Shown here: positions 1,412 to 22,597 of the stretch, piece by piece
Layout: each line of letters opens with the position of its first letter
Numbering within the stretch: position 1 is the stretch's first letter
Source of the DNA: Desulfobacterales bacterium
GTDB lineage: Bacteria; Desulfobacterota; Desulfobacteria; Desulfobacterales; UBA11574
DNA: 24,000 bases
Direction: 5' to 3'
NCBI GenBank assembly: GCA_032127815.1
Contig: JAQBHK010000368.1
Span: 7,779 to 31,778 of the forward strand
Program-made: the position numbers and the translations under genes
Notes under the pieces: generated by a model
Seen by the model: only the letters and a program-made list of their open reading frames with translations
Told to the model about the DNA's origin: nothing
The model's database searches: none

Positions 1412-1518
1412 GCCCTATTATTTTAATTTTAGATTGGAAACTACATAGTGCTTAAACGTATTTATGGATGGGCACTAATTAGGATTATATCATATTTTTT
1501 AGTTTTAGGAGGAATATC

Positions 1519-3105: not shown

Positions 3106-3165
3106 TGCTCTAATTCATAAATTCGGTGCCGTATAATAAGTATAGTTGATTACAGAATTTTTTGT

Positions 3166-3364
3166 CTCACAGAGCACACAGAGGACACCGAGTTTTGATC
3201 TGGATTGCTGAGAGGGCAATCCAGATCTATCTTCTATCCAACTGCTGCTGGAAGCCTGCCCCGGAAGGGGTTGAGTATTTGCTATGATTTTGGAGGCCAG
3301 TCACGTTTTTAACGGAATAAAGGATTCTGATTAAAAATCTCTGCGGCTCTGTGTACTCTGTGAG
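3166..3364. repeat. Palindromic intergenic element (element C): CACAGAG-repeat terminal inverted repeats around a perfect 12-bp hairpin
   Basis: Left end is CTCACAGAGCACACAGAGGACACCGAG. The reverse complement of the right end is CTCACAGAGTACACAGAGCCGCAGAG. Internal hairpin GATCTGGATTGC (3197-3208) / GCAATCCAGATC (3216-3227). Confidence 0.5.
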
Positions 3365-3427
3365 AAATATAAAAGACCCTTTCAGGGTTGCTATTAAGCC
3401 ACCCTTATTAGGAGTGGTATTTGATTG

Positions 3428-4030: not shown

Positions 4031-4044
4031 GGCGTGGAAAACGT

Positions 4045-4773
4045 ATGCCTCAAGCGTCTGGAAAAACCGTTCTGGTTATCGAAGATGACCGCAACACGGC
4101 CGATCTTATCGCTCTCTACTTGGAGCGTGAAGGTTTCCGGGCTCTGACGGCCGGTGACGGCGAAGCCGGTTTGGCTTTGGCCGAGCAATACCGGCCGGAT
4201 CTGGTCGTCCTGGACCTGATGCTCCCGAAAATAGACGGATGGGAGGTCTGCCGGCGCCTGCGAAAGAGATCCGAGGTGCCGGTCATCATGCTCACGGCCC
4301 GGGGCGAAGAGATAGACCGGGTGGCCGGACTCACCCTGGGGGCCGACGACTACGTAGTGAAACCCTTCAGCCCCCGGGAACTGGTGGCGCGCGTCAAGGC
4401 TGTTTTGAGGCGGGTTCCCCGTCCGGATGCCGCCGCGAAAACGCTTCTCTCCCACGCCGATGTGGTCCTGGATCTGGAAAAGCGCAGGCTGAGCGTTGCG
4501 GGTCGGCCGGTCTCCCTTACTCCCCATGAGTACGCTCTATTAGAGGCTCTAATGTCCGCTCCGGGCAGGCTTTTCACCCGGGACGAAATGCTGAACCACC
4601 TCTATCCGCGGGGCGAAGCTGTCGTGATCGACCGCGTGGTGGACGTTCACATTGGAAAGCTCAGGCAGAAAATCGAACCGGAACCGTCCGATCCCCGTTA
4701 TATCCTGACCGTACGCGGCGTCGGGTACCGGTTTGCAGACCGGCAATCCCAGCGCATGGAGCCCCCCCGATGA
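4045..4773 (+). CDS. OmpR/PhoB-family response regulator
   Basis: Receiver domain (VLVIEDD, DLVVLDLMLP, VIMLTA, KPF) plus winged-helix output (LTPHEYALLEAL, VDVHIGKLRQKIE, TVRGVGYRF). Its stop overlaps the kinase start (ATGA at 4770-4773). Confidence 0.92.
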   Translation: MPQASGKTVLVIEDDRNTADLIALYLEREGFRALTAGDGEAGLALAEQYRPDLVVLDLMLPKIDGWEVCRRLRKRSEVPVIMLTARGEEIDRVAGLTLGADDYVVKPFSPRELVARVKAVLRRVPRPDAAAKTLLSHADVVLDLEKRRLSVAGRPVSLTPHEYALLEALMSAPGRLFTRDEMLNHLYPRGEAVVIDRVVDVHIGKLRQKIEPEPSDPRYILTVRGVGYRFADRQSQRMEPPR

Positions 4774-5843
4774 AACGGTATCTGATCATCAAGCTGCTGG
4801 CCGTCAACTTGGCGGTGATCGGTTTTGTTATGGTGATTGTGTGGCTCTCCATCGATACCCTGGCCGCGGGATACTTTGTCACGCTCATGGAAAAGTACAA
4901 CATCTCGCCTGAGCCGGCGCATGCCATGTTTATCAGTGCCGTACACCGCTACCTGCTCTGGGCCTGCCTTGCGGCTGTAATTCTCGCCGTAATACTCAGT
5001 TTCGTGATGATGCGCAGGGTTCTGGCTCCCTTGACCCGCATGACCGCGATCTCCCGGGAAATTGCCGCCGGCAACTTTGCCGTCCGGGTTCCGGCCGACA
5101 CCGAAGATGAGGTGGGCCAGCTCGCCCGGGCCTTTAACCGCATGTCTGTGAGCCTGGAGAAGCTCGAGAACCTGCGGCGCACCCTGATGATCGACGTGGC
5201 CCACGAGCTTCGTACTCCCCTGACCAACATCCAAGGATACCTGGAAGCTCTCAATGACGACGTGCTGCCCCCTTCGTCCAAAATCTTCGCCCTGCTTCAG
5301 GATGAGACTCTGCGGCTGGCTCAGCTTGTGGAGGACGTGCTGCAGCTCGCCCGGGCCGATGCGTCCCACGGCAATTTGCACCGCGATCCCACGGACCTGA
5401 AGGAGGCGGTCAACGCCGCCTTAGAGACCTTTGCCCTCACATTTACCCAAAAATCCGTTACCATAAGCATTCACGCTCCGGATGGCCCGTTGACGGTGCC
5501 GGCCGACCGGGACCGCATCGCCCGTGTCCTGCGGAACCTGACCGACAACGCCGCCCGCTACACGCCCCCCAACGGGGAGGTAAAGATCCTGATTGAACCC
5601 GGTTCCCGGCAGGTTCGCATCGTTTACGTCAACAACAGCGGGGAGCTTATCCCCGAGGACCTGCCTTACATTTTCGAGCGCTTTTACCGCGGGGAAAAAT
5701 CTCGTTCCCGGCAGCACGGCGGTGCCGGCATCGGCTTGTCCATCGTCAAGGAACTGGTCGAGGCCCATGGCGGCACGGTCGGCGCCGAACTGGTCGAAAG
5801 TAATATCCGCATCTGGTTTGAGCTTCCCATGGACCTTTCTTAA
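4770..5843 (+). CDS. HAMP-domain sensor histidine kinase with a very short extracytoplasmic loop
   Basis: Two N-terminal TM segments flank a loop of about 30 aa. HAMP region, H-box DVAHELRTPLT, N box LTDNAARYT, G boxes GGAGIGLSIVKELVEAHGG. Confidence 0.9.
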   Translation: MKRYLIIKLLAVNLAVIGFVMVIVWLSIDTLAAGYFVTLMEKYNISPEPAHAMFISAVHRYLLWACLAAVILAVILSFVMMRRVLAPLTRMTAISREIAAGNFAVRVPADTEDEVGQLARAFNRMSVSLEKLENLRRTLMIDVAHELRTPLTNIQGYLEALNDDVLPPSSKIFALLQDETLRLAQLVEDVLQLARADASHGNLHRDPTDLKEAVNAALETFALTFTQKSVTISIHAPDGPLTVPADRDRIARVLRNLTDNAARYTPPNGEVKILIEPGSRQVRIVYVNNSGELIPEDLPYIFERFYRGEKSRSRQHGGAGIGLSIVKELVEAHGGTVGAELVESNIRIWFELPMDLS

Positions 5844-5856
5844 ATCGTTAGCGTTT

Positions 5857-5950
5857 ACAGGTTCAGAGTTCACCGTTCAGGGTTGTTTTTTTGTGCCTTT
5901 ACTAAATAGCTCCGAACCTTGAACCTTTGAACCCTGAACCCTAAACCTGT
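5857..5950. repeat. Long imperfect palindrome built from GTTCAGG-type heptamer repeats (element D), directly after the kinase stop
   Basis: Left arm is ACAGGTTCAGAGTTCACCGTTCAGGGTT. The reverse complement of the right arm is ACAGGTTTAGGGTTCAGGGTTCAAAGGTTCAAGGTT. The first 23 aligned positions contain 4 mismatches by hand alignment. A T7 run follows the left arm. Confidence 0.5.
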
Positions 5951-6109
5951 GAACGGTCACCTTAAATCTTTACCAAATCTTTACAGTATCTTTATACGCC
6001 CTTCATCCTGCTGTCTTATATTCCGTACAGGGAAAAATCGAACGCCGGTCTTTACTAGGACCGAATGCGTATTATTCTAAATCATGTTCACAAAAAGTGG
6101 AGGTGTCTC

Positions 6110-7297
6110 ATGAAAACCTTAAATATTACGATCATCGTCCTGGTAGCGGTACTGTTGGGCTACCACCAGGTCAGCAGCAGGGATGGAAATATGGAGGAAA
6201 AGATGAACGATAAACCCCAAAAGACTCAAACGGCTGTCTTTGCCGGCGGCTGTTTTTGGTGCACGGAATCTGATTTTGAAAAAATAGAAGGCGTGTTCGA
6301 GGCCATCTCAGGCTACACCGGCGGTCGCCAGGCCAATCCCACCTACCGCCAGGTTTCCGCAGGCGGCAGCGGGCACATTGAGGCCGTCAAGGTGGTTTAC
6401 GATCCGGACAAGATTACCTACGAGGAACTGCTCGAGGTGTTTTGGAGGCACGTGGATCCCACGGATGCCGGGGGCCAGTTCGTGGACCGGGGCTCTCAAT
6501 ATCGCAGTGCCATCTTCTATGCCAACGAGCAGGAGAAGCGCCTGGCCGAGGAATCCAAGAAACGCCTGGAAGCCACGGGCCACTTCGGCAAGCCCATCGT
6601 ATCCGATATTTTGCCGCTGGGTCCCTTTTACACGGCAGAGGAGTATCACCAGGATTACTACAAAAAAAAACCGATTCGCTATCACTATTACCGCTCCGGC
6701 TCCGGCCGGGAACAGTTTTTGGAAAAGGCATGGAAAGACATGCAGTCCGGGATGAAGGATGAGATGCAAAAGACAGCAATGACCGCGGACCCGATGAAAG
6801 AGGAAGTGGGCGGCGGCATGTCACCAAAGATGGATACCGGCATGAAAAATGCCGGCGGAATGTACACCCTGCCCGATGACGAGGAACTGCGCCGGAGGTT
6901 AACACCCATGCAGTACAAGGTAGCGCGGCAGGACGGCACCGAGCCGCCCTTTAACAACGAATACTGGAATAACCACCAAGCGGGCCTTTATGTGGACATT
7001 GTCTCGGGCGAACCGCTCTTCAGCTCCACGGACAAGTTCGATTCTAAAACCGGCTGGCCGAGCTTCACCCGGCCTCTGGTTCCGGAGAATGTTGTCCAAA
7101 AGTCTGACCGGAGTTTTTTCATGACGCGCACCGAGGTGCGCAGCAAGTATGGCGACTCGCACCTGGGGCACCTGTTCAACGACGGGCCTGAGCCTACGGG
7201 CCTGCGTTACTGCATTAACTCGGCCGCTCTGCGGTTCATTCCCAAGGCGGACCTTGAAAAGGAAGGCTACGGGAAATATCGGAAGCTGTTTGAATGA
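6110..7297 (+). CDS. msrAB: Exported bifunctional methionine sulfoxide reductase MsrA-MsrB fusion
   Basis: ATG at 6110 preceded by a GTGGAGG RBS; the track start at 6065 lacks an RBS. N-terminal hydrophobic signal or anchor [18 protein letters not shown]. MsrA active site GGCFWC. MsrB block [15 protein letters not shown], without the zinc CxxC pairs. Confidence 0.9.
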
Positions 7298-7329
7298 TTA
7301 ATTAACATATTGCTTTTCTTTTTTGTTTA

Positions 7330-7594
7330 GACAGGATCAACAGGATCTTCAGGATTTACTTATAATTTTCACAGTTTCTCCCGTCATGCGGGACAGGCGA
7401 AAGAAACTGTGAAAGACTAATCCATCTGTCGGTTGAGATTAGATCATCAAGCTCGAATTACAGAAGTGACTGTGGCTTCCAGCTATTACTTATTCGCCGC
7501 AGGCGATGATGTTTTAGCCGTTTCATCTGCTTGTCCCGCAAAGCGGGAGAAACGGCTAAAGATTAAAAATCCAGTTAATCCTGTACATCCTGTC
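7330..7594. mobile_element. MITE-like non-coding element, ACAGGAT-repeat TIR family, copy A
   Basis: TIRs are GACAGGATCAACAGGATCTTCAGGATTT and, as reverse complement of the right end, GACAGGATGTACAGGATTAACTGGATTT. Two perfect internal hairpins: 7367-7379 / 7402-7414 (13 bp) and 7513-7524 / 7549-7560 (12 bp). No plausible ORF. A second copy lies at 22834-23076. Confidence 0.5.
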
Positions 7595-7802
7595 AAAATA
7601 AATTCTTAGCGACTGACCGAAAACATTACGGTGATGCCGCTGCAAAGTATTCCCGAGGTCTGGTTGTATACTGCGCCAGTATCCAGTATCCCGTATCAGG
7701 GCTTCCTGTGCCGCTCCTCCACCAGCGCCTTGGCGTGAAACACTCAGCTTCCGATCAGCAGGATCGATCATTTGCCGGCGCCTCGGCGGCATATAAAAAA
7801 AA

Positions 7803-7840
7803 TTGACATTATATGCATAATGTGACAATTTTATGCATAA
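7803..7840 (+). promoter_or_regulatory. Putative vapBC-1 promoter/operator with a duplicated TGACA-N3-4-TATGCATAA motif
   Basis: TTGACATTATATGCATAA (7803-7820) and GTGACAATTTTATGCATAA (7822-7840) form a direct repeat. Each contains the palindrome ATGCAT and lies 14 nt upstream of the vapB ATG. I could not place a clean -10 box. Confidence 0.35.
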
Positions 7841-7853
7841 AGAGGGGGCGATA

Positions 7854-8045
7854 ATGAGAACAACGCTTGATTTACCTGAAGATTTATTAGATGAGGCTAT
7901 GAAAGCTACCCAAATTAAGACAAAGACCAGAGTCATAATCACAGCCTTGGAAGAATTAATTAGAAAGTCAAAAATTTCAGAGTTAAAAGAATTTAAAGGA
8001 AAAGTTGATTTGGACATTGATTTAGACACTATCAGAGGGCGTTAA
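7854..8045 (+). CDS. vapB: VapB-type antitoxin (MRTTLDLPEDLL class, DUF2191-like)
   Basis: ATG at 7854 with a GAGGGGG RBS; the track start at 7833 lies inside the operator. The N-terminus MRTTLDLPEDLLDEAMK is typical of this antitoxin class. Its stop overlaps the PIN gene start (TAATG at 8043-8047). Confidence 0.75.
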   Translation: MRTTLDLPEDLLDEAMKATQIKTKTRVIITALEELIRKSKISELKEFKGKVDLDIDLDTIRGR

Positions 8046-8425
8046 TGCCGGTATTAGTCGACACTTCAGTGTGGATTGAGTATTTCAGAAGTGGAAACAA
8101 TTCTGAAAAACTCGATTTCTTAATTGATGAAAATCTCCTTGTAACAAACGATCTTATTTTGGCAGAACTAATACCATTCCTAAAAGTTCAAAACAAAAAA
8201 ATTATTATCGATTTATTGCTTAATATCAAAAAATTAGGTTTGTCTATAAATTGGAAGCAAATCATTGAGTATCAATACAAATGCCTAAAAAATGGTTTGA
8301 ATGGTGTTAGTATACCGGATCTTATAATTGCCCAAAACGCAAAACAAAATCATTGCGAAATTTACTCTCTGGACAATCATTTTAGCCTAATGAAGGATAT
8401 CATTCATCTTCAGATACAAATATAA
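8045..8425 (+). CDS. vapC: PIN-domain ribonuclease toxin VapC
   Basis: 126 aa. Acidic PIN residues sit in the expected contexts: VLVDTSV, LILAELI, IPDLIIA, SLDNHF. Coupled to the upstream antitoxin. AT-rich: my hand counts are 23/60 and 16/60 G+C on two sampled lines. Confidence 0.85.
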   Translation: MPVLVDTSVWIEYFRSGNNSEKLDFLIDENLLVTNDLILAELIPFLKVQNKKIIIDLLLNIKKLGLSINWKQIIEYQYKCLKNGLNGVSIPDLIIAQNAKQNHCEIYSLDNHFSLMKDIIHLQIQI

Positions 8426-8517
8426 GCTGAAGACACACCGAGCAAACGCTTTCACTGCGATTTTCCGGATCATTTCTTTGTGCGTAAGAATATGCTGAAT
8501 ATAAACCCGATTTGTGC

Positions 8518-8564
8518 TTGACAACAACTCCCAGCGGTTGCATAATGGTTTCACAATGGAACCA
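8518..8564 (+). promoter_or_regulatory. Sigma70-type promoter and operator for vapBC-2
   Basis: TTGACA (8518-8523), 17 nt spacer, CATAAT (8541-8546). An imperfect inverted repeat TGGTTTC..GGAACCA (8546-8564) follows, ahead of the AGGAGG RBS. Confidence 0.5.
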
Positions 8565-8579
8565 TTAGGAGGTGTTTGT

Positions 8580-8822
8580 ATGGCAACGGTAACGGTAAAG
8601 AATATACCTGATGAACTTTACGATCGGCTTAAGTCAGTCGCAGAAATAAATCGGCGTTCCATCAATAGCGAGATTATCATGTGCATTGAAAATGCTGTTG
8701 TAAGTCACCGAATAAACCTCGACGAGGTGCTTGAGAATGCTCGTCAGCTCCGTCAATTGACAGCCGAACATCTGATAAGTGATGAGGAATTCAATCAGGC
8801 AAAAGCAGAAGGTCGGCTATGA
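8580..8822 (+). CDS. vapB: Ribbon-helix-helix (Arc/FitA-like) antitoxin
   Basis: ATG at 8580, 7 nt after AGGAGG. MATVTVKNIPDELYDRLKSVAEINRRSINSEII is the typical RHH N-terminus. ATGA overlap with the PIN gene at 8819-8822. Confidence 0.75.
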   Translation: MATVTVKNIPDELYDRLKSVAEINRRSINSEIIMCIENAVVSHRINLDEVLENARQLRQLTAEHLISDEEFNQAKAEGRL

Positions 8823-9220
8823 TTGTCGTTGATACAAATGTTATCGGCTATCTTTTTCTATCAAGCGAGCAATCTTTTTTAGCCGAACGTGCCCTACAAA
8901 AGGAGAATGAGTGGGCCGCACCGATTTTATGGCGTAGCGAATTTTGCAATGTACTAACTCTTTATATGCGCAAAAATATCATTAAGTTGGAGCAAGCTCA
9001 GCGCATAATGAATAGTGCGTTGAAATTATTGAGGGGTCGAGAATATGAGGTTCCGTCATATGAAGTTCTGAGGCTTGCCTCAACAAGCAAATGTTCTGCT
9101 TATGATTGTGAGTTTATCGCTACTGCAAATGATCTGAAAGTCCCCTTAGTAACTGTTGATAAGCAGCTGCTGCGTGAGTTTTCTTCAGTGGCCGTATCAT
9201 TGAATTCGTTCAGCGAATAA
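8819..9220 (+). CDS. vapC: PIN-domain toxin VapC
   Basis: 133 aa. MIVVDTNV, conserved acidic positions (SAYDCEFIA, VTVDKQL). Translationally coupled to the RHH antitoxin. Confidence 0.85.
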   Translation: MIVVDTNVIGYLFLSSEQSFLAERALQKENEWAAPILWRSEFCNVLTLYMRKNIIKLEQAQRIMNSALKLLRGREYEVPSYEVLRLASTSKCSAYDCEFIATANDLKVPLVTVDKQLLREFSSVAVSLNSFSE

Positions 9221-12326: not shown

Positions 12327-12382
12327 ACATCGAATACTTCTTTGTAACCTAAATAGTGTCCATCCAGAAAGGGAGGAATGCT

Positions 12383-14011
12383 ATGTTTTGTTATCAATGT
12401 GAACAAACCGCCAAAGGTACGGGGTGCACAATACAGGGTGTTTGTGGTAAACAGCCCGAAGTCGCCGCCTTGCAGGACTTGCTCATTTATGCACTCATGG
12501 GACTCTCCCAGGTTGCTGTGGAAGGTCGCAAAGTGGGCGTCTTGGACCCGGACGTCAATGCCTTCACCGTAAAAGCCGCCTTTGCCACTTTGACAAATGT
12601 GGATTTTGACCCTGATCGTTTTATGGATTTGATCGGCCAGGCCGCGGACAAGCGTGAAAAATTAAAAGCAAGTGTTACCGCCGCCGGCGGCAATGGGGTT
12701 TGGCCTGACGGACCTGCAACCTTGGCACCCAAAGCCACCTTGGACGATTTGGTCAAGCAAGGCGAGCAGGTCGGAATAAAATCGTATCCGGCCGACAACC
12801 CGGACATCCTTTCATTGAAGCACACCGTACTGTACGGCATTAAGGGCGTGAGCGCTTATGCGGACCACGCCCTGATTTTAGGGCAGGAGGATGACAGCGT
12901 TTATGCATATGTCCATGAAGGACTGGCTGCCATTCAAAGAGATGATCTGGGGATAGACGACTGGGTGGGGATGGCTCTCAAATGCGGTGAAGCAGCCTAT
13001 AAAGCCATGGAACTGCTCGATGCCGGCAATACGAACACATACGGCCACCCTGTGCCGACAAAGGTTCCGCTGGGCTACAAGAAAGGCAAAGCCATCCTTG
13101 TCTCCGGTCATGATTTGAGAGATCTCGAAGAACTGCTCAAGCAGACTGAAGGAAAAGGCATTAACATCTACACCCATGGTGAGATGCTCTCAACCCACGG
13201 TTACCCCGGATTAAAGCAATATTCGCATTTCTACGGCCAATTCGGTACGGCCTGGCAAAAGCAGATCAAAGAGTTCGCGGCTTTTCCAGGCGCTATTCTG
13301 ATGACCACCAATTGCATTCAAAGGCCCAAAAATGACTATAAAGATAATATATTTACCAGCGGCATGGTCGGCTGGCCGGGCATTCCCCACATACCGGACC
13401 TGAATTTTCAGCCGGTCATCGATAAAGCCCTTGAACTTGGCGGCTTTGAAAAAGACCACGTCGACCAGGAGGTCACGGTCGGCTTTGCCCGTAATGCCGT
13501 GCTCGGTGTCGCGGACAAGGTGATCGAGGCGGTCAAGTCCGGTGCCATTCGGCATTTCTTTCTGGTGGCCGGTTGCGACGGAGCCAAGCCGGGACGGAAT
13601 TACTATACTGAGTTTGTAGAAAAGATTCCCGCAGATTGCATTGTTTTGACCCTGGCGTGCGGCAAATATCGTTTTTTCGACAAAGAGCTTGGCGATATCG
13701 GCGGCATACCGCGCCTTCTGGATGCCGGACAGTGCAATGACGCCTACTCGGCCGTTCAGATCGCTTTGGCCTTAGCAAAGGCATTCGATGTTAAGGTCAA
13801 TGAATTGCCGTTATCAATGATCATTTCCTGGTATGAGCAAAAAGCGGTTTGCGTCCTGTTGGCCCTGCTTCATCTCGGTATCAAGGGTATCCGCCTGGGG
13901 CCGTCGCTGCCGGCGTTTTTAACGCCCAATGTTCTGGAAACCCTGGTGAAAAATTTTGACATCAAACCGATTTCTACGGCTGACGAGGACCTGAAAGCCA
14001 TTCTGGGATAA
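12383..14011 (+). CDS. hcp: Hybrid cluster protein / hydroxylamine reductase
   Basis: ATG at 12383, 6 nt after GGGAGG; the track start at 12356 is upstream of the RBS. N-terminal cluster motif MFCYQCEQTAKGTGCTIQGVCGK, and full-length collinearity with the roughly 540-550 aa Hcp architecture. Confidence 0.93.
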   Translation: MFCYQCEQTAKGTGCTIQGVCGKQPEVAALQDLLIYALMGLSQVAVEGRKVGVLDPDVNAFTVKAAFATLTNVDFDPDRFMDLIGQAADKREKLKASVTAAGGNGVWPDGPATLAPKATLDDLVKQGEQVGIKSYPADNPDILSLKHTVLYGIKGVSAYADHALILGQEDDSVYAYVHEGLAAIQRDDLGIDDWVGMALKCGEAAYKAMELLDAGNTNTYGHPVPTKVPLGYKKGKAILVSGHDLRDLEELLKQTEGKGINIYTHGEMLSTHGYPGLKQYSHFYGQFGTAWQKQIKEFAAFPGAILMTTNCIQRPKNDYKDNIFTSGMVGWPGIPHIPDLNFQPVIDKALELGGFEKDHVDQEVTVGFARNAVLGVADKVIEAVKSGAIRHFFLVAGCDGAKPGRNYYTEFVEKIPADCIVLTLACGKYRFFDKELGDIGGIPRLLDAGQCNDAYSAVQIALALAKAFDVKVNELPLSMIISWYEQKAVCVLLALLHLGIKGIRLGPSLPAFLTPNVLETLVKNFDIKPISTADEDLKAILG

Positions 14012-14341
14012 TGTCTCCAAAAGAGTTGATACCTGAATCTTGCAAAGGATTGCCGACGAACAGGTTTTTAATTTGATTTATAATTAGTTACTGTTTATAG
14101 TACGGTTCTTAAATCGTAAACCTAAGTTGAGCAATTTTTTACTCGATCTTCACCGATCTCTTGCGCATAAAGGCTTTGCAAAAATCCTCGACATATCCAC
14201 GGGTATGCACCCCAGGGCATTTCCTGCGGGGCACCTGCGGTTTGTGCAAACCTTTCTGCATCAAGATCTTGGAACATATCTTCGCAAAAATCGCTCAACT
14301 CAGGTTAAACACTTTCTTTTAAAACCAAACATATTTCATTG

Positions 14342-15625
14342 ATGAATTCAAAAGAAAGCACGAAGAATTCCGGCCTGCCTGACCCCGGCGAAGGCGGATT
14401 GATTGCCTGTCATGAATGCGATTTTCTGCACAGCAAGCCGCCGATTCCGAAAGGGGGGAAAGCGCTTTGCACCCGATGCGGGGCGTTCCTGTATCAGAAC
14501 ATCCCCAACAGTCTTGAAAAGGTTCTGGCATTGAACCTGGCCGCGTTGCTGCTCCTGATCATGGCCAACGTCTTCCCCTTTGTTTCCCTGAAACTAAGCG
14601 GCCGTGTCGAGACCAACGTTTTGATCTCCGGCGCTCTGGCAATCTACCGTCTGGGCATGCGCGAGGTGGGCGTTTTGGTGCTTCTGACGAGCTTCATATT
14701 CCCCTTTTTGACCATCACGGGGATGCTGTATATCCTTTTTCCCCTGACATTTGGACACCGGCCCTGGAAAATGGCCCCGGTCTATCGACTGGTTCAGGCC
14801 CTGGCACCATGGAGCCTGCTGGGGGTCTTTATGCTCGGCGTCCTGATCGCCATCGTCAAACTGCTCGACCTTGCCACCGTTATCCCGGGTATTTCTCTCT
14901 ATTCATTTGTGGGACTTATGGTGGTATCGGCCGCGGCCAACGCCAATCTGGATGCGTCTCTGCTCTGGCCGCCCATGAGGCTCGAACCGACGGGAAACCA
15001 ATCGGGGGACACGGCGGCCAAACGCGGCCTGATCGCCTGCCACACGTGTGCGCTTCTCGTTCCCGAAACAGGTCAAAACGACCACGGACACGGCGTCTGC
15101 CCCCGCTGCCAAAGCCCGCTCCACAGCCGCAAAGCCAACAGTCTTACGCGGACCTGGGCCCTCATCTGCGCCGCCGCCATTCTTTATATCCCGGCCAACG
15201 TCTACCCGGTCATGACAGTGATTCAATTCGGTCGGGGGAATCCGAATACCATTCTGATCGGCATTGTTCACCTGATTGAAAGCGGCATGTGGGGGCTTGC
15301 CATGATCATTTTCTTTGCCAGCATCGTGGTTCCGGTCCTGAAACTGACTGTGCTCTCCTTTCTCTTGATCACGATTCAGAAAAAGTCTTCGTGGCGTTTC
15401 CGGGATCGCGCCCTCCTCTTTCGCGTCATCGAAGCCGTGGGAGCATGGTCTATGGTAGATGTTTATGTTGTTGCCATTCTGGCCGGACTGGTTAACCTCG
15501 GTGCCCTGTCGACCATCCGACCCGGCATCGGTGTATCGTTCTTTGGCGCTGTGGTAGTTATCACGATGTTCGCTGCCCGCGGCTTTGATCCCCGACTCAT
15601 TTGGGACCATAAGGAAAGACCATGA
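14342..15625 (+). CDS. pqiA: PqiA-family integral membrane protein (two PqiA repeats with zinc-ribbon-like CxxC pairs)
   Basis: About 427 aa. Duplicated architecture GLIACHECDFL..CTRCGA and GLIACHTCALL..CPRCQS, each followed by multiple TM helices. The stop overlaps the pqiB start (ATGA at 15622-15625). Confidence 0.88.
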   Translation: MNSKESTKNSGLPDPGEGGLIACHECDFLHSKPPIPKGGKALCTRCGAFLYQNIPNSLEKVLALNLAALLLLIMANVFPFVSLKLSGRVETNVLISGALAIYRLGMREVGVLVLLTSFIFPFLTITGMLYILFPLTFGHRPWKMAPVYRLVQALAPWSLLGVFMLGVLIAIVKLLDLATVIPGISLYSFVGLMVVSAAANANLDASLLWPPMRLEPTGNQSGDTAAKRGLIACHTCALLVPETGQNDHGHGVCPRCQSPLHSRKANSLTRTWALICAAAILYIPANVYPVMTVIQFGRGNPNTILIGIVHLIESGMWGLAMIIFFASIVVPVLKLTVLSFLLITIQKKSSWRFRDRALLFRVIEAVGAWSMVDVYVVAILAGLVNLGALSTIRPGIGVSFFGAVVVITMFAARGFDPRLIWDHKERP

Positions 15626-17322
15626 TAAAAGATCCCCATACAGAACCAGACGCAGACGCAACGGCTCCTGCACCCAAGATCAAGAAAAAGTCCGGACCGT
15701 CTATAGTGTGGCTGATACCGCTGATTACCGCCATTATCGGTGGTTGGCTCATCTTCAAGACAATCTCGGAAAAGGGACCGGAAATTACCATCACCTTCAA
15801 AACAGCGGAAGGGATCGAGGCCGGAAAGACCAAGATCAAGTACAAGGAGATTGAGATAGGGGTGGTGGACTCGGTGCATTTTAGCAAGGACTTCTCCCAC
15901 ATCATTGTGAAGGCCGGTATGGAAAAGGAGTCAGCGTCATTCCTTCGGCGTGACACCCGCTTCTGGGTGGTCAGGCCCCAACTCACCCTGCGTGGTGCAT
16001 CGGGCCTCGGTACTTTGCTTTCGGGAGCCTATATCGAGATCGAGCCGGGTCAGGGGGCATACCATAATCGTTTTGCCGGGCTTGACGTCCCGCCGGTGGT
16101 CAAAGCCGAAGTGGCGGGGAAAAAAATCCTGCTCATGGCCAAAAAGCTGGGCTCCATCGGCAACGGTTCACCTATCTACTATCAGGGGATTCTGGCCGGT
16201 GAAATTCTCGGGTGGGAGCTTGGAAACGACCGCAAGAGTATTTTTCTGCATGCCTTTATCAAAGCGCCCTATGATGAGCTTGTTCGGAGCAATACCCGCT
16301 TCTGGAATGTGAGCGGAATGAACGTTTCCGTAGGGGCGGACGGTATTATCGTGCGAACGGAATCGGTCCAGTCTCTTCTTTATGGGGGGATCGCTTTTGA
16401 TACCCCGGAGACGCTTGAACGGGTAACGGAGGATGTGGAAGGCCTGGTGTTCACCCTTTATGACAGTCTTGAGAGCATTCATGAGGAGGCGTTCAGCAAG
16501 AAGATTAAGTTTATTCTTTTCTTTGACGGTTCTGTTCGGGGCCTGAACGTAGGCGCTCCTGTTGAGTTCAAGGGGATCAAGGTCGGATCGGTGAAAGACG
16601 TTCGCCTGGAATTCGACAAACGCAACACCTCCTTTCGGATTCCGGTTCTGATAGAGATCGAACCCGAACGGGTCATCGCGCGAGGCCAAGATGAGGACAC
16701 ATCTCCATACGAGACCTTAAAAAATCTGGTCTACCGTGGCTTGCGCGCCCGGTTACAGACCGGCAGCCTCCTCACCGGGCAGCTGTTCGTGGAGCTTGAC
16801 ATGCATCCCGGCACCCCTATCCGGCTGGCGAACGAAGAGGTACCCTTTCCGGAGCTGCCCACCATTCCGGCCGAACTGGAACAGATGACCACATCGGTTA
16901 AAAGTATCCTCGCCAAGCTGGAAAAAGTGGACATGGAAAAGATCGGCGCGGAACTCATAGGGAGCCTTCAGGGGGCGCAACAACTGATCACCAATCCGGG
17001 ACTTAGGGACTCCGCCAACGATCTGAAGGAATCTTTGCTTGCGTTCAAAAGTATCCTGCGCAAACTGGATCAGCGTGTCGAACCGATTGCGGTGAATCTG
17101 GAAAAAGCCATTGGGGCCGGTCATCAGGCGTTGGAAGAAACCCGGGTCACATTGGGTTTGATTGACGAAGTTCTCAAACCCGATTCCCCCATTCAATACA
17201 ATTTTGGACAGTTAACCGAGGAGTTGGCCGAGACGGCCCGTTCCATACGTACCCTTGTGGATTTGTTAGAGCGAAATCCCAACGCTATTATTTTCGGCAA
17301 GGATTCTCCAGGAGGGGAATGA
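15622..17322 (+). CDS. pqiB: PqiB-family MCE-domain protein (multiple MCE domains plus C-terminal helical region)
   Basis: 566 aa. N-terminal TM (IVWLIPLITAIIGGWLIF). Repeated MCE-type blocks (GIEAGKTKIKYKEIEIGVV, SIGNGSPIYYQGILAGEI, GLNVGAPVEFKGIKVGSV). Long helical C-terminus. Confidence 0.88.
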   Translation: MIKDPHTEPDADATAPAPKIKKKSGPSIVWLIPLITAIIGGWLIFKTISEKGPEITITFKTAEGIEAGKTKIKYKEIEIGVVDSVHFSKDFSHIIVKAGMEKESASFLRRDTRFWVVRPQLTLRGASGLGTLLSGAYIEIEPGQGAYHNRFAGLDVPPVVKAEVAGKKILLMAKKLGSIGNGSPIYYQGILAGEILGWELGNDRKSIFLHAFIKAPYDELVRSNTRFWNVSGMNVSVGADGIIVRTESVQSLLYGGIAFDTPETLERVTEDVEGLVFTLYDSLESIHEEAFSKKIKFILFFDGSVRGLNVGAPVEFKGIKVGSVKDVRLEFDKRNTSFRIPVLIEIEPERVIARGQDEDTSPYETLKNLVYRGLRARLQTGSLLTGQLFVELDMHPGTPIRLANEEVPFPELPTIPAELEQMTTSVKSILAKLEKVDMEKIGAELIGSLQGAQQLITNPGLRDSANDLKESLLAFKSILRKLDQRVEPIAVNLEKAIGAGHQALEETRVTLGLIDEVLKPDSPIQYNFGQLTEELAETARSIRTLVDLLERNPNAIIFGKDSPGGE

Positions 17323-17963
17323 TGATGCTTTCATTTTTAAGAATCCGGTTGGTTTTGGTTTTTGTGCTGGCGGGCGGCTTCTTGACCGGTTGTGTGACGG
17401 CAACCACCCCGGCTACCCGATTCTACGTCCTTAATTCTCTGACTCCCGGTGCCGGTCTTTCCCGTGACGCCGGCCTGAACGGCGAGCTGTCCGTGGAGGT
17501 CGCCTCGCTGCGCTTGCCCCAGTACCTGGAAAGACCACAGATCGTTACCCGGAGCAGCGGAAACCGTCTGGAACTGGCGGAACTTCATCAGTGGGGAGGG
17601 AACCTGAGTAAGAATATGATGAGGGTCCTCGCAAAAAACTTTTCCCAGTTTCTTGACACCCCCAACATCGCTATCTCCCCCCGTCGCCCGTTAATTCCCC
17701 CTGATTTTCTCGTTGAATTGGAGGTGATGCAGTTCGAAAGAGACTCCCATGGACAGGTGCGGCTCTCCGTCCAGTGGCGCTTATCGCGCGGAAAGGATCG
17801 AATGCCTCTGGCAACCCATATGACCGATCTCGCGAGTGCAACGGTGCCCGCGGGCCCGGATTTCGAGCATACGGTGTCGGCTATGAGTACTCTTTTAGGC
17901 GAATTGAGCCAAATCATCGGCCTAGAGATCGTGAAAAACGTCAACAGGAGATCCGATCCATGA
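17319..17963 (+). CDS. pqiC: PqiC/YmbA-like lipoprotein (ABC-type transport auxiliary component family)
   Basis: 214 aa. Lipobox FLTGC, then RFYVL..LPQYLERPQIVTR typical of the family. ATGA overlaps on both sides (17319-17322 and 17960-17963). Confidence 0.75.
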   Translation: MMMLSFLRIRLVLVFVLAGGFLTGCVTATTPATRFYVLNSLTPGAGLSRDAGLNGELSVEVASLRLPQYLERPQIVTRSSGNRLELAELHQWGGNLSKNMMRVLAKNFSQFLDTPNIAISPRRPLIPPDFLVELEVMQFERDSHGQVRLSVQWRLSRGKDRMPLATHMTDLASATVPAGPDFEHTVSAMSTLLGELSQIIGLEIVKNVNRRSDP

Positions 17964-18913
17964 GCTGGAAGAGGATGTCGCGTCGACAGGCGGGTTTAAC
18001 GGCAAACCGATGGCCGCACACCCGGCTGCCCGGGATTCTTCTGATCCTGGGGCTGCTTTCCCTTCCGGTCTTTTCCAAATCGCTTTTAGCCGATGAGACA
18101 TGGACAGGACGGACCATCATGGATGAGGCTTTCAAACGTCATGAACTGTTCCCTTACGTCTTTGAAAAACAGACCATGATCCTAATCGACAGCGCGGAGA
18201 ACCGCGACGTCAGGAAGGCGCGTCGTTTCTCCAGGGTGGAACCGGATGCAACGGTCAAATATCTTCTGATCTTCGACCACCCGGCCGAGATCCGCGGCGT
18301 CGCACTGCTGGCGATTCGTCACCCATCCGGTCGGATAGAAAGCAAGATCTATCTGCCCGCGTTCGGAAAGGAACTGAAATCCACTGCGGGGAAAAGCAGA
18401 GGCAATCATTTTTTGGGCACCGATTTTGCTATCGAGGACCTTACGGCGGAGGTTTTATCGGATTTTCGTTACGTCCGAAAGACGGATGACAAGATCGGAA
18501 AGTTCCTCTATTTCGTCGTTGAAGCCTTTCCAAAGGATCCGGAGATCGAAAGAGATACGGGTTACGGCTTGCGTCGACACTTTATTCGACAGGACATCTT
18601 TTACATTGTTCGTACCGATTACTATGATCCCCGCGGACGGTTTTTGAAACGCCGAACCTGCCACGATCTGAAAATGGTGGGTGGTACCATGTGGCGCGCC
18701 AATATGATCCTTATGGAAAACAACAAAGAACAGCATAAAACGTTGATCAAAATTAACCAGAGAGTTTTTTCCCATGATTACGTACCCCCGGAAATGTTTA
18801 CTTCTGAATGGCTTTTAGAGAACCGACACGTTCAGAGCACTGAAAAGCGTCTTTTTCAGGACACTTTTGAATCTTTGGGGGAAAATGATACCGAGCTTAA
18901 AGATAGCCCTTAG
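17960..18913 (+). CDS. Exported LolA-like outer-membrane lipoprotein-sorting family protein
   Basis: I place the start at ATG 17960, which overlaps the pqiC stop; the track start at 17774 lies inside pqiC. Signal peptide LPGILLILGLLSLPVFSKSLLA. The motif IYLPAFGKELKSTAGKSRGNHFLGTDFAIEDL matches the LolA-like family usually found beside MMPL/RND exporters. Confidence 0.6.
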   Translation: MSWKRMSRRQAGLTANRWPHTRLPGILLILGLLSLPVFSKSLLADETWTGRTIMDEAFKRHELFPYVFEKQTMILIDSAENRDVRKARRFSRVEPDATVKYLLIFDHPAEIRGVALLAIRHPSGRIESKIYLPAFGKELKSTAGKSRGNHFLGTDFAIEDLTAEVLSDFRYVRKTDDKIGKFLYFVVEAFPKDPEIERDTGYGLRRHFIRQDIFYIVRTDYYDPRGRFLKRRTCHDLKMVGGTMWRANMILMENNKEQHKTLIKINQRVFSHDYVPPEMFTSEWLLENRHVQSTEKRLFQDTFESLGENDTELKDSP

Positions 18914-18947
18914 CCAATCTTTTAGATAAAAATTAAGATAGCCGATT

Positions 18948-21749
18948 ATGTTTTCCCGATTTATCATGCTGGGAGTCAGCCGCCGCTTGGCCACGCTATT
19001 ATTCTTGGTGATGGTGACATGCATCACCGGGTTTGGCCTGCCCAAGCTCCGCATAGACACCGGCTTCAATAGTCTGATCTCGAGCACCGACCCGGACAAG
19101 CCGATTTACGATCGGATCGCCCGGGAGTTCGGCTCAGACAACTGCACCATCGTCTACGTTCGGGACAAGGCGCTCTGGTCGCCGGATAAGTTGGCCGCCT
19201 TAGAGAAGCTGCACTACCAACTGGAGGGGCTCGATTTCGTGGAACGTGTGGACGACCTTTTCAGTTTGCGCAGTATCCGGGGGGCCGGAGGAAAAATAGA
19301 CTCCCGTATTTTTCTGCCGAAAGCCCCCACCGACCAGGCCGCCATCGATCAAGCCAGGGCTGACGCGCTTTACAATCCTCTCATTGAGGGTAACTTTGTA
19401 TCCCGCGACGGAACCGTGACGGCATTACTGGTTTCCGTGCGAGAAGACCGGGAAGACGTCAGCTTCGACCGTCGGGTCAACCAAGCCCTGGAACGGATTC
19501 TCACACCGGCGCGATCCGTTTTCCAGGAGGTGTTTCAAGTCGGCCCGCCCCGCATCAACGCGGAGCTCAAATCCATACTCCTGGATGATCTCATGAAACT
19601 GGGTCCGCTGTCGGCTTTCGTTCTCGTAGCGGCGATCCTCTTTTTCCTTCGCAGCGGGTTTGCCGCATGGGTACCTCTGGCCACCTCAGGCCTCAGCATC
19701 GCATGGACTTTTGGAATGATGGGTTGGGCCGGCATTCCGCTCAACATTCTGAGTGCCATGTTACCCACCCTGGTCGTGGTCATCGGTTCCACCGAGGACA
19801 CCCATATGATGTCGTCCTATTTCCACGGCGTCTCCCAAGCCAAAGAGGACCACCGTGGTTTCGCCACCCACTGTATGATGAGACATTTGGGAGTGCCGTT
19901 GCTCTTGACCATCCTCACCACGGCGTTGGGCTTTGCGAGCAACATCTTCAGCAGCATCCGGCTCATTCAACACTTTGCCATTGCTGCCACCTTTGCGATT
20001 CTGGCAAACGGAATGATCACCATACTGTTTGTCCCCATGGTTTTAAGCGTCATGGGCCCTCTCCGGACCGGGCTCTTTCAAGGCGGGAATCGGGTGTCCG
20101 GTCTGCCAAAATTGTTTGTCCGGATGTTCGGCTTTACAAAACGCCGTTTTCCACGCTCGATCCTGGTGGTGACGGCCATTTTATGCGCCTTCTTTGTTTA
20201 CCAACTCTCCAAACTGTATGTCACCAACGATCCCTTGTCCTATTTTCAAAAGGACCAGCCGCTTATCCGGGACACCCAACGGATCCACCAGGACTTGTCC
20301 GGCTTGAAGATATTCTTTATTACCTTAGAGTCTGACCAGGAAAAGGCGTTTCAGGTGCCCAAAAACATTGAAAAACTGGTCGCCATCCAGAAGTTTCTAA
20401 AGCAACAGGGGATATTTGATCGAAGCATATCTCTGGCCGACCACCTCTCCCTTGTCAACCGCGAGTTTCACGGGGGTAACCCCGAGTACTTTACGGTGCC
20501 GAAACGGCGTAAGCTCGTCGCCCAGTACCTGCTCTTTTTTCATCGCCGGGATCTTGAAAGTTACGTCAGCCATGATTTTCGGCGTGCCAACATTGTGGTT
20601 CGACACAACGTCAGCGATTCCAATACCCTGAACCGTTACATAGGCGAGCTCAAAGAAGTGGTATCAAACATCGCCGGGGGCCAAATGAATGCTCACGTGG
20701 TCGGTGAAAACCTGATGATCAACGCTGCCGCCGAAAGCCTTATGGTGGCCCAGGTTAAATCCCTGGCCATTCTGCTTTTCGTGATCTTTTTAATAATGTC
20801 GGCCATGTTTACCTCCTTCAAAGGCGGGATCATCTCCCTCATTCCCAGCCTGATCCCCATCATTCTGATGTTCGGCGTTATGGGGCTTTTGGAGATTCCT
20901 TTGAATCCGGGCACCGCCATGGTGGCGGTCATCGCCATCGGCATCGCCATTGACGGGACCATCCACCTTTTTTCCCGCTACATCGAACTATGCCGGCGAA
21001 CCTCCGATTACGAAGAAGCGGTGAACATCACGGTTCAGGAAGAGGCCACGCCCATGGTCGCCACCAGTCTGGCCCTGGCATTGGGGTTCGGCGTCCTCAT
21101 CACGTCCAATTTTACCGTAATTGCACAGTTCGGCGCCTTGTCCGCCGCCACCATGCTTTTTTCAATCTTCGCCAACCTTTTAATCACCCCGATCATCATG
21201 TTGAGAATCCGTTTGGTTGGTCTCCACCAGATCCTGGCCTTGTCCATGCATAAAGAGGTCCTTGAAAAAAGCCCGCTCTTTGTGGGCATGTCCAACTACC
21301 AGATGCGCAAGGCCATCCTGATATCGGAATCGCAAGAGTTTGCGGAAGGGGAACTGCTGGTGGAGCAGGGAACGGTGGGACGGAAAATGTACCTGATCTT
21401 GTCCGGTCAAGTCGATGTCGTGCGTCGCAGCGAGAACAAATCCAAAAGCGTTGCGGTCCTGAAAGCGGGAGAGGTTTTCGGCGAGATCGGATACATAAGA
21501 GAGGCCCACCGAACCGCCGACGTTCGGGCCTTGACCCGGGTGGAGGTCCTGCGGTTCGATTATAAAAAACTCAAAAAAGACCTTAAGTTTTTTCCCCACA
21601 TCGTCGCCAATCTCAACTTTAATATCAGCTGCATTCTCGGCGAGCGCTTGGCCGACGTGATGGATGTGATGGACGGGATGGGACCTCAGCCGGAAAAAGA
21701 GAAACACGCTGCACCTGAGCCGTCCGGAGATAAAGAGCCCCTCGATTAA
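18948..21749 (+). CDS. MMPL/RND-superfamily (COG1033-type) exporter fused to a C-terminal cyclic-nucleotide-binding domain
   Basis: 933 aa. Two pseudo-repeats, each a large periplasmic loop followed by a TM bundle (GSTEDTHMMS and AIGIAIDGTIHLFSRY blocks). A C-terminal region of about 170 aa carries FGEIGYIREAHRTADVRA, a CAP/PKA-type phosphate-binding cassette. Confidence 0.85.
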   Translation: MFSRFIMLGVSRRLATLLFLVMVTCITGFGLPKLRIDTGFNSLISSTDPDKPIYDRIAREFGSDNCTIVYVRDKALWSPDKLAALEKLHYQLEGLDFVERVDDLFSLRSIRGAGGKIDSRIFLPKAPTDQAAIDQARADALYNPLIEGNFVSRDGTVTALLVSVREDREDVSFDRRVNQALERILTPARSVFQEVFQVGPPRINAELKSILLDDLMKLGPLSAFVLVAAILFFLRSGFAAWVPLATSGLSIAWTFGMMGWAGIPLNILSAMLPTLVVVIGSTEDTHMMSSYFHGVSQAKEDHRGFATHCMMRHLGVPLLLTILTTALGFASNIFSSIRLIQHFAIAATFAILANGMITILFVPMVLSVMGPLRTGLFQGGNRVSGLPKLFVRMFGFTKRRFPRSILVVTAILCAFFVYQLSKLYVTNDPLSYFQKDQPLIRDTQRIHQDLSGLKIFFITLESDQEKAFQVPKNIEKLVAIQKFLKQQGIFDRSISLADHLSLVNREFHGGNPEYFTVPKRRKLVAQYLLFFHRRDLESYVSHDFRRANIVVRHNVSDSNTLNRYIGELKEVVSNIAGGQMNAHVVGENLMINAAAESLMVAQVKSLAILLFVIFLIMSAMFTSFKGGIISLIPSLIPIILMFGVMGLLEIPLNPGTAMVAVIAIGIAIDGTIHLFSRYIELCRRTSDYEEAVNITVQEEATPMVATSLALALGFGVLITSNFTVIAQFGALSAATMLFSIFANLLITPIIMLRIRLVGLHQILALSMHKEVLEKSPLFVGMSNYQMRKAILISESQEFAEGELLVEQGTVGRKMYLILSGQVDVVRRSENKSKSVAVLKAGEVFGEIGYIREAHRTADVRALTRVEVLRFDYKKLKKDLKFFPHIVANLNFNISCILGERLADVMDVMDGMGPQPEKEKHAAPEPSGDKEPLD

Positions 21750-21820
21750 CCGCTATAAAATATTTTTGCTAAAATACTATAATCGGCATTTCCATGGAAA
21801 AATCCATTTGTGGACGGTAA

Positions 21821-22597
21821 CTATCTCAGGAGTTGAAAGTACCAGTAAATAAGGCTCTGGCCGAAGAAAATATAGGTAACGGCGCCGATGGCCAGAAACG
21901 GGCCGAAGGGGACGGCAAATTTCATATTTTTACCTTTGGCCAGCATGACCGTCAGGCCAACCACGGTTCCCACGGCAGATGAAACGAAAATTGTGAACAG
22001 CACGCCTTTCCAGCCGACAATGGTTCCGATCATTGCCAAAAGCTTTATATCGCCGCCCCCCATACCTTCCTTGCGAGTCAAAAGATGATAAACCCAGGCT
22101 ACAATGAAAAGGCTTCCGCCTCCGGCCAGCAAGCCCAGGGCAGACTCTTTAAACGTAACTCCCGGCAGAGCTAAAGAAGCGATGAGGCCGATTGGAATTC
22201 CGGGGATTGAAATCACATTCGGTATGATCTTGTGGTCTATATCGATAAAGGTTATGACTAAAAGTACGGCGATGAATACAAAATATATAAGGCCTTCAAG
22301 GGTTAAACCAAAGGCAAAAAAGGCGCTGGCGGCAGCGAGACCGGCCAGCGTTTCAACCAAAGGATAGCGCCAGGATATCGGTTCACTGCAGTGGCGGCAC
22401 CTGCCTTTCAGCCACAGATAACTTAAGACAGGAATATTATCGTAATACTTTATCGTGTTATCACAGCTGGGACATGCTGAACGCGGGGGGTCGGCAATAG
22501 ATTTTTCAAGTGGAAGCCGGTAAATGCAAACGTTCATAAAACTTCCGATGCACATACCGAATAAAAAAATATAAATTACAAGAAATATATTAGACAT
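21821..22597 (-). CDS. pilD: Type IV prepilin peptidase / N-methyltransferase (A24 family)
   Basis: 258 aa. N-terminal CPSCDNTI...CRHC zinc motif. Two catalytic Asp contexts (ITFIDIDHKIIPN and GMGGGDIKLLAMIG). Confidence 0.9.
   Translation of the reverse strand: MSNIFLVIYIFLFGMCIGSFMNVCIYRLPLEKSIADPPRSACPSCDNTIKYYDNIPVLSYLWLKGRCRHCSEPISWRYPLVETLAGLAAASAFFAFGLTLEGLIYFVFIAVLLVITFIDIDHKIIPNVISIPGIPIGLIASLALPGVTFKESALGLLAGGGSLFIVAWVYHLLTRKEGMGGGDIKLLAMIGTIVGWKGVLFTIFVSSAVGTVVGLTVMLAKGKNMKFAVPFGPFLAIGAVTYIFFGQSLIYWYFQLLR

Follow-up and report, generated by a model that had tools for sequence, protein, structure and literature searches.

A 24,000-nucleotide stretch of contig JAQBHK010000368.1 from a Desulfobacterales bacterium (here, the window) encodes a membrane transporter from the superfamily of resistance-nodulation-division (RND) proteins that carries a cyclic-nucleotide-binding (CNB) domain at its C-terminal end. 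The open reading frame (ORF), at positions 18948..21749 of the plus strand, specifies 933 amino acids, with an MMPL/HAE3-type RND body followed by a tail that is a canonical CAP/PKA-type CNB domain fused past the last transmembrane (TM) helix. The gene for this RND::CNB pump is the last of a five-gene cassette, pqiA-pqiB-pqiC-LolA-like-RND::CNB, and because a CNB-bearing pump ends a conserved envelope lipid-transport operon, the flow of lipids to the outer membrane is probably under the control of a second messenger. The reading that we favor, with moderate confidence, is that the pump is a proton-driven exporter of lipids or other hydrophobes that is gated by a cyclic nucleoside monophosphate (cNMP) and works with the LolA-like carrier and the Pqi tunnel.

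The CNB domain occupies residues 783-909 (21294..21674) and comprises helix A, an eight-stranded beta roll, and helices B and C. A first-pass annotation, made from the letters alone, had placed a cNMP domain on the cytoplasmic tail of an RND/MMPL transporter at 21268-21749, a range that spans the tail from just past TM12 through the stop codon. This proposal held up, as the quoted peptide, LFVGMSNYQMRKAILISESQEF, starts at residue 777 (nucleotide 21276) within the ORF 18948..21749, and the protein matches both MMPL and PF00027. The hmmscan search suggested at the same time gave a significant match of residues 796-876 to the Pfam model cNMP_binding (PF00027; E value of 5.8e-20), and with a score of 71.5 bits, where the gathering score is 27.5, the assignment lies far above chance. 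Among PDB sequences, the top matches of the tail were a PKA regulatory subunit (E value of 2.2e-17) and the CNB domain of SthK (E value of 1.5e-16; 128 residues aligned), to which it is 33-34% identical in sequence. The alignment with SthK and PKA delineates the phosphate-binding cassette, G841-E-V-F-G845-E846-...-R855-T856-A857-...-A861 (21468..21530). Over these residues (841-861, nucleotides 21468-21530), GEVFGEIGYIREAHRTADVRA can be aligned in each column with the cassettes of SthK (GQFFGEMALILRAPRTATVRA) and PKA regulatory subunits, and the Gly-Glu and Arg-Thr-Ala residues share columns with the ligand contacts of both proteins, so that the cassette has its Glu and its Arg at ligand positions, as had been expected.

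The predicted structure agrees with this assignment. An AlphaFold2 (AF2) model of the tail on its own (predicted local distance difference test [pLDDT] score of 79.2) retrieved CRP-family proteins, GlxR, Mycobacterium tuberculosis CRP, PKA, PKG, and SthK in Foldseek with E values of 1e-11 to 1e-9, and the superpositions had root mean square deviations mostly of 2.3-4.2 Å over about 130-145 columns. In the full-length model, TM12 (723-753) is followed by helix A (783-792), the beta roll (794-871), helix B (872-879), and helix C (883-909). A conserved linker of residues 755-782 (21210..21293), with two short predicted helices at 759-764 and 769-774, joins TM12 to the CNB domain, and the protein closes with an acidic, poorly conserved, and predicted-disordered end (residues 910-933 and the stop codon, 21675..21749; pLDDT of <50 at 912-933). 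In NCBIfam, the tail is matched at an E value of 1e-10 by TIGR03896, which we take to be a family of bacteriocin ABC exporters from cyanobacteria that bear a CNB domain.

The RND body, residues 1-754 (18948..21209), has 12 TM helices and two periplasmic domains. Its RND architecture, with two pseudo-symmetric halves and a large periplasmic domain after TM1 and after TM7, is seen in the secondary structure of the full-length AF2 model, which was built with 60 homologues and has a pLDDT score of 83.7 and a predicted template modeling (pTM) score of 0.79. Over the roughly 750 N-terminal residues, Pfam reports MMPL in two stretches (E value of 1.3e-29) along with Sterol-sensing and Patched SSD sub-matches, and the top NCBIfam match of the pump is TIGR00921 (HAE3), at residues 13-751 with an E value of 3.8e-57. 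Foldseek matched the model to MmpL4/5 (E value of about 3e-24), NPC1L1, MmpL3, Dispatched, HpnN, and Patched; over the MmpL, NPC1-type, and HpnN matches, E values ranged from 3e-24 to 1e-16, TM-scores by target from 0.46 to 0.75, and identities from 12 to 17%. When the body was used to search PDB sequences, the only detectable relatives were Patched and NPC1-type proteins.

Two acidic sites in the body form a putative proton relay. One is the pair E283-D284 in TM4 (19794..19799; motif G-S-T-E-D-T-H), each residue being present in at least 90% of the 60 homologues and their position presumably being that of the GxxxD(D) motif of Patched-type RND proteins. The other is Asp669 in TM10 (20952..20954; motif A-I-G-I-A-I-D-G-T-I-H), likewise kept in at least 90% of the homologues and aligned to the Glu of the Patched TM10 sequence GIGVEFTVH and to the first Asp of the TM4 sequence GVGVDD. 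Given this conservation, the alignment with the Patched relay, and what is known of the family, proton (or ion) coupling is probably intact. The pump is assigned to the lipid- or hydrophobe-exporting RND branch (MMPL/HAE3; kin of MmpL, HpnN, and NPC1/Patched), and export powered by a proton-motive force is predicted for it. An assembly or frameshift artifact was considered as the source of the fusion and rejected, as more than 100 independent homologues share one continuous reading frame.

Conservation was assessed in 117 full-length homologues with 60-96% identity, with regional identities expressed as the mean to the query. G841, G845, E846, R855, and A861 are found in 117/117 of these proteins and T856 and A857 in 116/117. 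Mean identity is 67% in the CNB core and 69% in the pump body, and both the linker region (residues 755-790; 76%) and the C-helix (residues 881-905; 80%), the best-conserved stretch of the tail, lie above the body; residues 906-933, at 17%, are not conserved. Such conservation of site, linker, and C-helix is the pattern expected from a working ligand site and a working coupling element. Among 46 diverse members with 26-55% identity, 38 retain the Glu of the cassette and 41 its Arg. From these residues, we infer that the tail would bind cyclic AMP (cAMP) or cyclic GMP (cGMP). Many bacterial CNB-fold domains bind other ligands, and the tail could be a structural module or a receptor of that kind, like CooA, NtcA, CprK, or the cyclic di-GMP (c-di-GMP)-binding Clp, that has the CNB fold and binds neither cAMP nor cGMP in vivo. 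A window without a cyclase, a cassette helix of low model confidence (pLDDT of <50 at 847-851), and degenerate cassettes in some distant members would all fit such a domain. We nevertheless consider it quite unlikely, because the Gly-Glu and Arg-Thr-Ala contacts to the cyclic phosphate and ribose, which align with those of proven cAMP or cGMP binders, are invariant or nearly so in the 117 homologues and because class III cyclases, phosphodiesterase-type genes, and CNB proteins are operon neighbors of the pump in relatives (see below).

The first-pass annotation had referred to an operon around the pump without identifying it; this operon consists of pqiABC, the gene for a LolA-like carrier, and the pump gene, all on the plus strand. 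The first gene (14339..15625) encodes a pqiA-family inner-membrane subunit (TIGR00155, pqiA_fam, 292.8 bits, above the cut-off of 260.35). It is followed by a pqiB-like gene (15622..17322) for a periplasm-spanning tunnel subunit with three mammalian cell entry (MCE) domains (MlaD in 3 stretches; E value of 9.8e-37) and by a pqiC-like gene (17319..17963) for an outer-membrane lipoprotein (ABC_trans_aux, PF03886; E value of 8.4e-30) whose N-terminal sequence, ...AGGFLTGC, was read by eye as a Cys lipobox. The three genes therefore stand in PqiABC order. The fourth gene (17960..18913) encodes a LolA-like or TP_0789-like periplasmic carrier (PF17131; E value of 7.1e-33; 114.2 bits against a cut-off of 30) with the PDB matches 3bk5, described as a "putative outer membrane lipoprotein-sorting protein" (E value of 2.2e-18), 9tp6 (5.6e-12), and 4z48 (1.8e-10). 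The pqiA stop codon overlaps the pqiB start by 4 nucleotides, and the LolA-like ATG at 17960 overlaps the pqiC stop codon; with 4-nucleotide overlaps between genes and a gap of 34 nucleotides at the junction of the LolA-like and pump genes, a single operon is likely.

This arrangement is widely conserved. We searched 130 related loci from genome and metagenome collections by tblastn and counted those with a pump at least 50% identical and with sufficient upstream DNA; some loci are the same contig in two collections, so that the counts are not all independent. The LolA-like gene was present in 107/108 loci, pqiB in 86/87, pqiA in 72/73, and pqiC in 93/104, the last number being an undercount because pqiC diverges fast. 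On annotated contigs the order of the cassette is identical and the flanks are otherwise unrelated, and the cassette spans Desulfobacterota, Nitrospinota, and Gamma- and Betaproteobacteria. Clustering of the flanking ORFs revealed no further gene that is conserved across phyla, only clade-specific neighbors, for example genes for acyl-CoA synthetase, ferredoxin, and AcnX, and a narrower metagenome scan yielded only close relatives of the Pqi type. The operon context of pqiABC and a LolA-like carrier points to envelope lipid traffic, not drug efflux. We also noticed that two loci, L040 and L041, have an identical pump (P0001; 100%) and the same downstream genes and differ in the DNA upstream of pqiA, with a response regulator gene and hcp in one and genes for a NAD-binding protein, a Metallophos protein, and a PAP2 protein in the other, which marks the cassette's left border as a point of rearrangement.

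The first-pass annotation had suggested that export may be gated directly by cAMP, cGMP, or a related nucleotide and had also stated that no cyclase was visible in the window. The latter is correct for the substantial ORFs scanned with Pfam or NCBIfam, one end-truncated minus-strand ORF having been judged by eye only. Direct gating by cAMP or cGMP has become more plausible, both through the conservation described above and through the cyclase and phosphodiesterase-type neighbors of the pump in relatives. In one distant relative (L048; 43% identity), positions 749-9097 encode, on one strand, a HAMP-class III cyclase, a class II phosphodiesterase, a stand-alone CNB protein, a Metallophos protein, a LolA-like protein, and an RND::CNB pump, and in another (L049; 38%), genes for an RND::CNB pump, a Metallophos protein, and a CHASE2-cyclase are consecutive. 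These contiguous same-strand runs are the persuasive cases for a cNMP ligand. Among Pqi-type loci, L058 has a CRP-type regulator gene 0.3 kb past the pump and a cyclase-AAA-TPR gene 1 kb past it on the opposite strand, L059 has a tblastn match to a cyclase at the corresponding place, and L108 has a PAS-cyclase gene 265 nucleotides downstream of the pump on the opposite strand. The cyclases, phosphodiesterase-type genes, and stand-alone CNB proteins beside distant relatives support real cNMP control. Transcriptional cAMP-CRP control, as a separate candidate, was rejected, since a CRP-box pattern had 9 matches against 8.45 expected.

Distant family members retain the CNB domain without any Pqi genes. 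In loci without pqiABC, the next gene past the pump encodes a protein of 460-579 amino acids with no Pfam match, and two of these proteins (L050:4822-6204 and L048:7358-9097, the latter of 579 amino acids) share about 26% identity. That of L050 bears a signal peptide, and its C-terminus, ...LEYRF, was read as belonging to an outer-membrane beta-barrel; such post-pump proteins may be outer-membrane partners that replace Pqi, and the barrel reading fits a modular scheme running from pump to carrier to outer-membrane partner. At another distant locus (L046:2215-10296; 28% identity), the RND::CNB gene lies near genes for a stand-alone CNB protein, an HMG-CoA reductase, a DAGAT-type acyltransferase, and a CNB-patatin lipase, a neighborhood that looks like cNMP-controlled lipid metabolism. 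Directly downstream of the pump at L042:12765-13349 is a DUF2652 gene (PF10851; E value of 2e-22) whose product has the motifs LDLSGYT and VEGDALFF, which are reminiscent of the Asp motifs that bind metal in class III cyclases. DUF2652 was rejected as a general partner of the pump, as tblastn found it in none of the other loci among the 42 searched, and it has no sequence homologue in the PDB.

RND::CNB proteins form a large, old family. PF00027 is carried by 119/120 of the nearest 90%-identity clusters, the exception being an 803-amino-acid protein with 86% query coverage. Run exhaustively against 1.84 billion representatives at 50% identity, phmmer returned 5466 matches at an E value of ≤1e-30, and among the best 150, which were inspected, the alignment of 128 runs through the CNB domain, either unbroken or as a C-terminal fragment, with identities as low as 28%; 11 are RND-only proteins of about 720-805 amino acids, and 3 have other C-terminal extensions. 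At 50% identity, the family thus numbers at least 128 clusters. Its members come from, among others, Desulfobacterota, Nitrospinota, Gamma- and Betaproteobacteria, Magnetococcales, and a Solemya symbiont, and a metagenome-assembled genome of Candidatus Desulfatibia vada matches the window at about 96% identity. The first-pass annotation had noted that MMPL and RND pumps normally lack cytosolic sensors; this stands insofar as no characterized sensor-bearing RND protein was found in the literature searched, but the fusion is not rare, as the 128 of 150 best representatives attest. The public names of these proteins do not go beyond "MMPL family transporter," "efflux RND transporter permease subunit," and "Cyclic nucleotide-binding domain-containing protein," the last being a UniRef name. 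We found no paper on a fusion of an RND, MMPL, or HAE3 protein with a CNB domain, and nothing relevant on a link of Pqi with an RND pump or a LolA-like carrier, in a literature search that omits most subscription journals. The domain pair is already visible in automatic annotation, and its combination with a fixed PqiABC and LolA-like partnership is undescribed in the searched literature.

Some relatives extend the module. P0160 and P0174 (L045:2863-6045) are RND-CNB-GGDEF proteins of up to about 1050 amino acids, P0132 is an FHA-RND-CNB protein with an N-terminal FHA domain, and about 10 of the listed 50%-identity representatives measure 1015-1070 amino acids. In the GGDEF-bearing relatives, the RND-CNB module may serve as an input to c-di-GMP synthesis. 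These architectures, in which the module feeds a signaling output, together with the Sterol-sensing and Patched SSD matches of the body, would suit a "transceptor" in which the RND/SSD body is mainly a sensor of membrane lipids and the CNB domain integrates the cNMP level and signals to other proteins, transport being secondary. For the pump in the window, this seems very improbable because what lies past the CNB domain is just a disordered tail and no output domain; in addition, the protein retains a transporter's features: it keeps the relay residues typical of active RND pumps, and its gene lies among transport genes (pqiABC and the LolA-like gene), not signaling genes.

The domain identities, the conserved ligand-contact and relay residues, and the conserved cassette are established features of this system, and from them we infer a coupling route, a cooperation with Pqi, and a substrate as follows. 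Class III cyclases elsewhere in the genome would make cAMP or cGMP, which would be bound at the phosphate-binding cassette. As is usual in CNB proteins, the ligand would reposition helix A and the B/C hinge-lid helices, and this movement could pass through the 28-residue conserved linker to TM12, which would adjoin the TM10/TM4 proton relay, with a C-helix dimer interface as a possible further transmission route. The transport cycle would thereby be switched on or off by the ligand. Out of the inner membrane, the RND body would pull a membrane lipid or some other hydrophobe, and its recipients would be the periplasmic LolA-like carrier and/or the PqiB tunnel together with the PqiC lipoprotein; the result would be envelope lipid traffic under second-messenger control. 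A more far-reaching proposal, which we put forward tentatively and regard as rather doubtful, is that RND::CNB provides a Pqi-type transenvelope lipid conduit with the motor and the control point that had been missing from it. The pump would then draw lipid out of the inner membrane at the expense of the proton gradient and, only at permissive levels of cAMP or cGMP, pass it by way of the LolA-like carrier into the PqiB tunnel or along its side.

The same linker and C-helix bear on a different role for the bound nucleotide, in which the CNB domain governs not the transport cycle but the assembly, oligomerization, or localization of the pump, for example through CRP-like dimerization by the long C-helix or ligand-dependent docking onto PqiA or another cytoplasmic partner. 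The C-helix (881-905) is, at 80%, the best-conserved part of the tail, and the top structural matches of the tail are CRP-family domains, in which a long C-helix is the dimer interface. PqiA, which has cytoplasmic parts, is a constant member of the cassette, and other MmpL proteins are reported to bind partners through cytoplasmic C-terminal domains. Set against this, the short and strongly conserved linker to TM12 fits direct mechanical coupling, and because distant members keep the CNB domain without Pqi genes, PqiA is excluded as a general partner; we therefore regard a role in assembly as unlikely and retain gating of the transport cycle as the preferred reading.

Several observations weigh against gating of an HAE3-type exporter by cAMP or cGMP in concert with Pqi. 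A cyclase is lacking in the window and in most Pqi-type loci, and those found within 10 kb, in about 5 of about 100 Pqi-type loci, are a raw count not shown to be above background. A few distant family members have degenerate cassettes, and Arg-Thr-Ala is found in cAMP and cGMP binders alike and does not discriminate between them. The presence of GGDEF past the CNB domain in relatives indicates that the module can serve as a signaling input and not as a pump regulator, and any contact surface between the CNB domain and the TM helices is putative. Some family scores also fall short: TIGR00921 reaches 193.8 bits against a curated cut-off of 351.9, for which reason we call the pump HAE3-like and not a certified HAE3 member, and the HpnN cut-off is missed by far. 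For the partners, NF008070 (PqiB) has an E value of 8.1e-140 and 467.1 bits, below its cut-off of 525, NF011683 (the PqiA equivalog) 278.6 against 562, and NF033620 (PqiC) 23.1 against 200, so that the PqiA, PqiB, and PqiC proteins of the window are to be regarded, by these profiles, as homologues and not as certified equivalogs of the E. coli proteins.

The closest parallels for such gating are the channels SthK and MloK1 and the CNG and HCN channels, in which, as in the pump, a C-terminal CNB domain lies past the last TM helix and is joined to it by a short helical linker. In SthK and MloK1 the ligand acts directly on the membrane transport protein, without transcription, and the same is proposed here. 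The channels differ from the pump in having a tetrameric pore, whereas the membrane part of the pump is that of an RND secondary transporter, with 12 TM helices and two periplasmic domains, and coupling in the pump must act on the alternating-access or proton-relay cycle and not on a gate. No channel pore domain (S5-P-S6) was found upstream of the CNB domain, and no channel family was matched in Pfam or Foldseek; because its membrane part has the RND fold, the pump is not a member of the CNG channels. Other fusions of transporters with CNB domains are the sperm Na+/H+ exchanger SLC9C1, the MscS-like bCNG channels, and mycobacterial MFS-CNB and ABC-CNB proteins. Together with TIGR03896 they resemble the pump in bearing a CNB domain on a transporter other than a classical channel and differ in belonging to other transporter superfamilies.

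Among RND proteins, MmpL3/4/5, HpnN (HAE3), and NPC1/Patched share the fold and the acidic TM4/TM10 relay of the pump but, unlike it, have no CNB domain. The C-terminal domains of MmpL proteins are reported to be partner-binding or disordered and not ligand sensors. E. coli PqiABC has the same gene order and translational coupling as the pqiABC genes of the window, and the E. coli pqiABC operon is not known to include an RND pump, a LolA-like carrier, or a cNMP sensor. The AmeABCD system of Castellaniella defragrans, which includes the HAE3 RND protein AmeD, the LolA-superfamily protein AmeB, and the outer-membrane DUF1302 protein AmeA (PMC6394551), is the only characterized HAE3 system with a LolA-superfamily partner that we found in the literature searched. 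It resembles the cassette in placing an HAE3-type RND gene beside a gene for a periplasmic LolA-superfamily protein in a multi-component system for hydrophobe export, and its carrier and that of the window match the same PDB relatives, 3BK5 and 4Z48 (PMC6394551). AmeD (787 amino acids) lacks the CNB tail of the pump; it is partnered by DUF1302 and COG4447 proteins, not by PqiABC, and its role is in monoterpene tolerance (PMC6394551).

Immediately upstream of the cassette is a gene for a hybrid-cluster protein/hydroxylamine reductase (12356-14011; NF003658, E value of 1.6e-247), and a prepilin peptidase gene on the minus strand (21821-22597; A24_N_bact and Peptidase_A24) converges on the pump gene, the stop codons of the two genes being only 71 nucleotides apart. 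This gap yielded no terminator-like hairpin, and in a scan of 13900-22000 the counts of promoters and terminators were not above those of shuffled sequences. An Rfam scan gave no riboswitch or RNA element anywhere in the window. Two genes for PIN-domain proteins, at 8045-8425 and 8819-9220, each follow a small ORF that overlaps them (7833-8045 and 8514-8822, respectively); they have the layout of tandem VapBC-type toxin-antitoxin pairs (7833-9220) and lie in the kilobase of lowest G+C content in the window (0.375 at 8001-9000). At the left edge, a truncated minus-strand ORF (3-1277) resembles glutamine synthetase, its N-terminal sequence having been judged by eye, and genes for DUF3786, DUF169, and MsrAB proteins are consistent with an anaerobic Desulfobacterota host.

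The regulation of RND transporters is understood to be mostly transcriptional, and a ligand sensor borne by the pump itself would add a new and fast layer of control for this superfamily and provide a tractable system for studying how a cytoplasmic domain governs a proton-coupled RND cycle. The near-obligate linkage with pqiABC and the LolA-like gene across phyla leads to testable hypotheses on the cargo and power source of Pqi-type MCE tunnels and on the tuning of lipid flow to the outer membrane by a second messenger. If RND::CNB is indeed the motor of the Pqi conduit, the supply of lipid to the outer membrane would be directly gated by a second messenger in many diderm phyla, and this would suggest how MCE systems that have no energy source of their own, such as Pqi, are powered.

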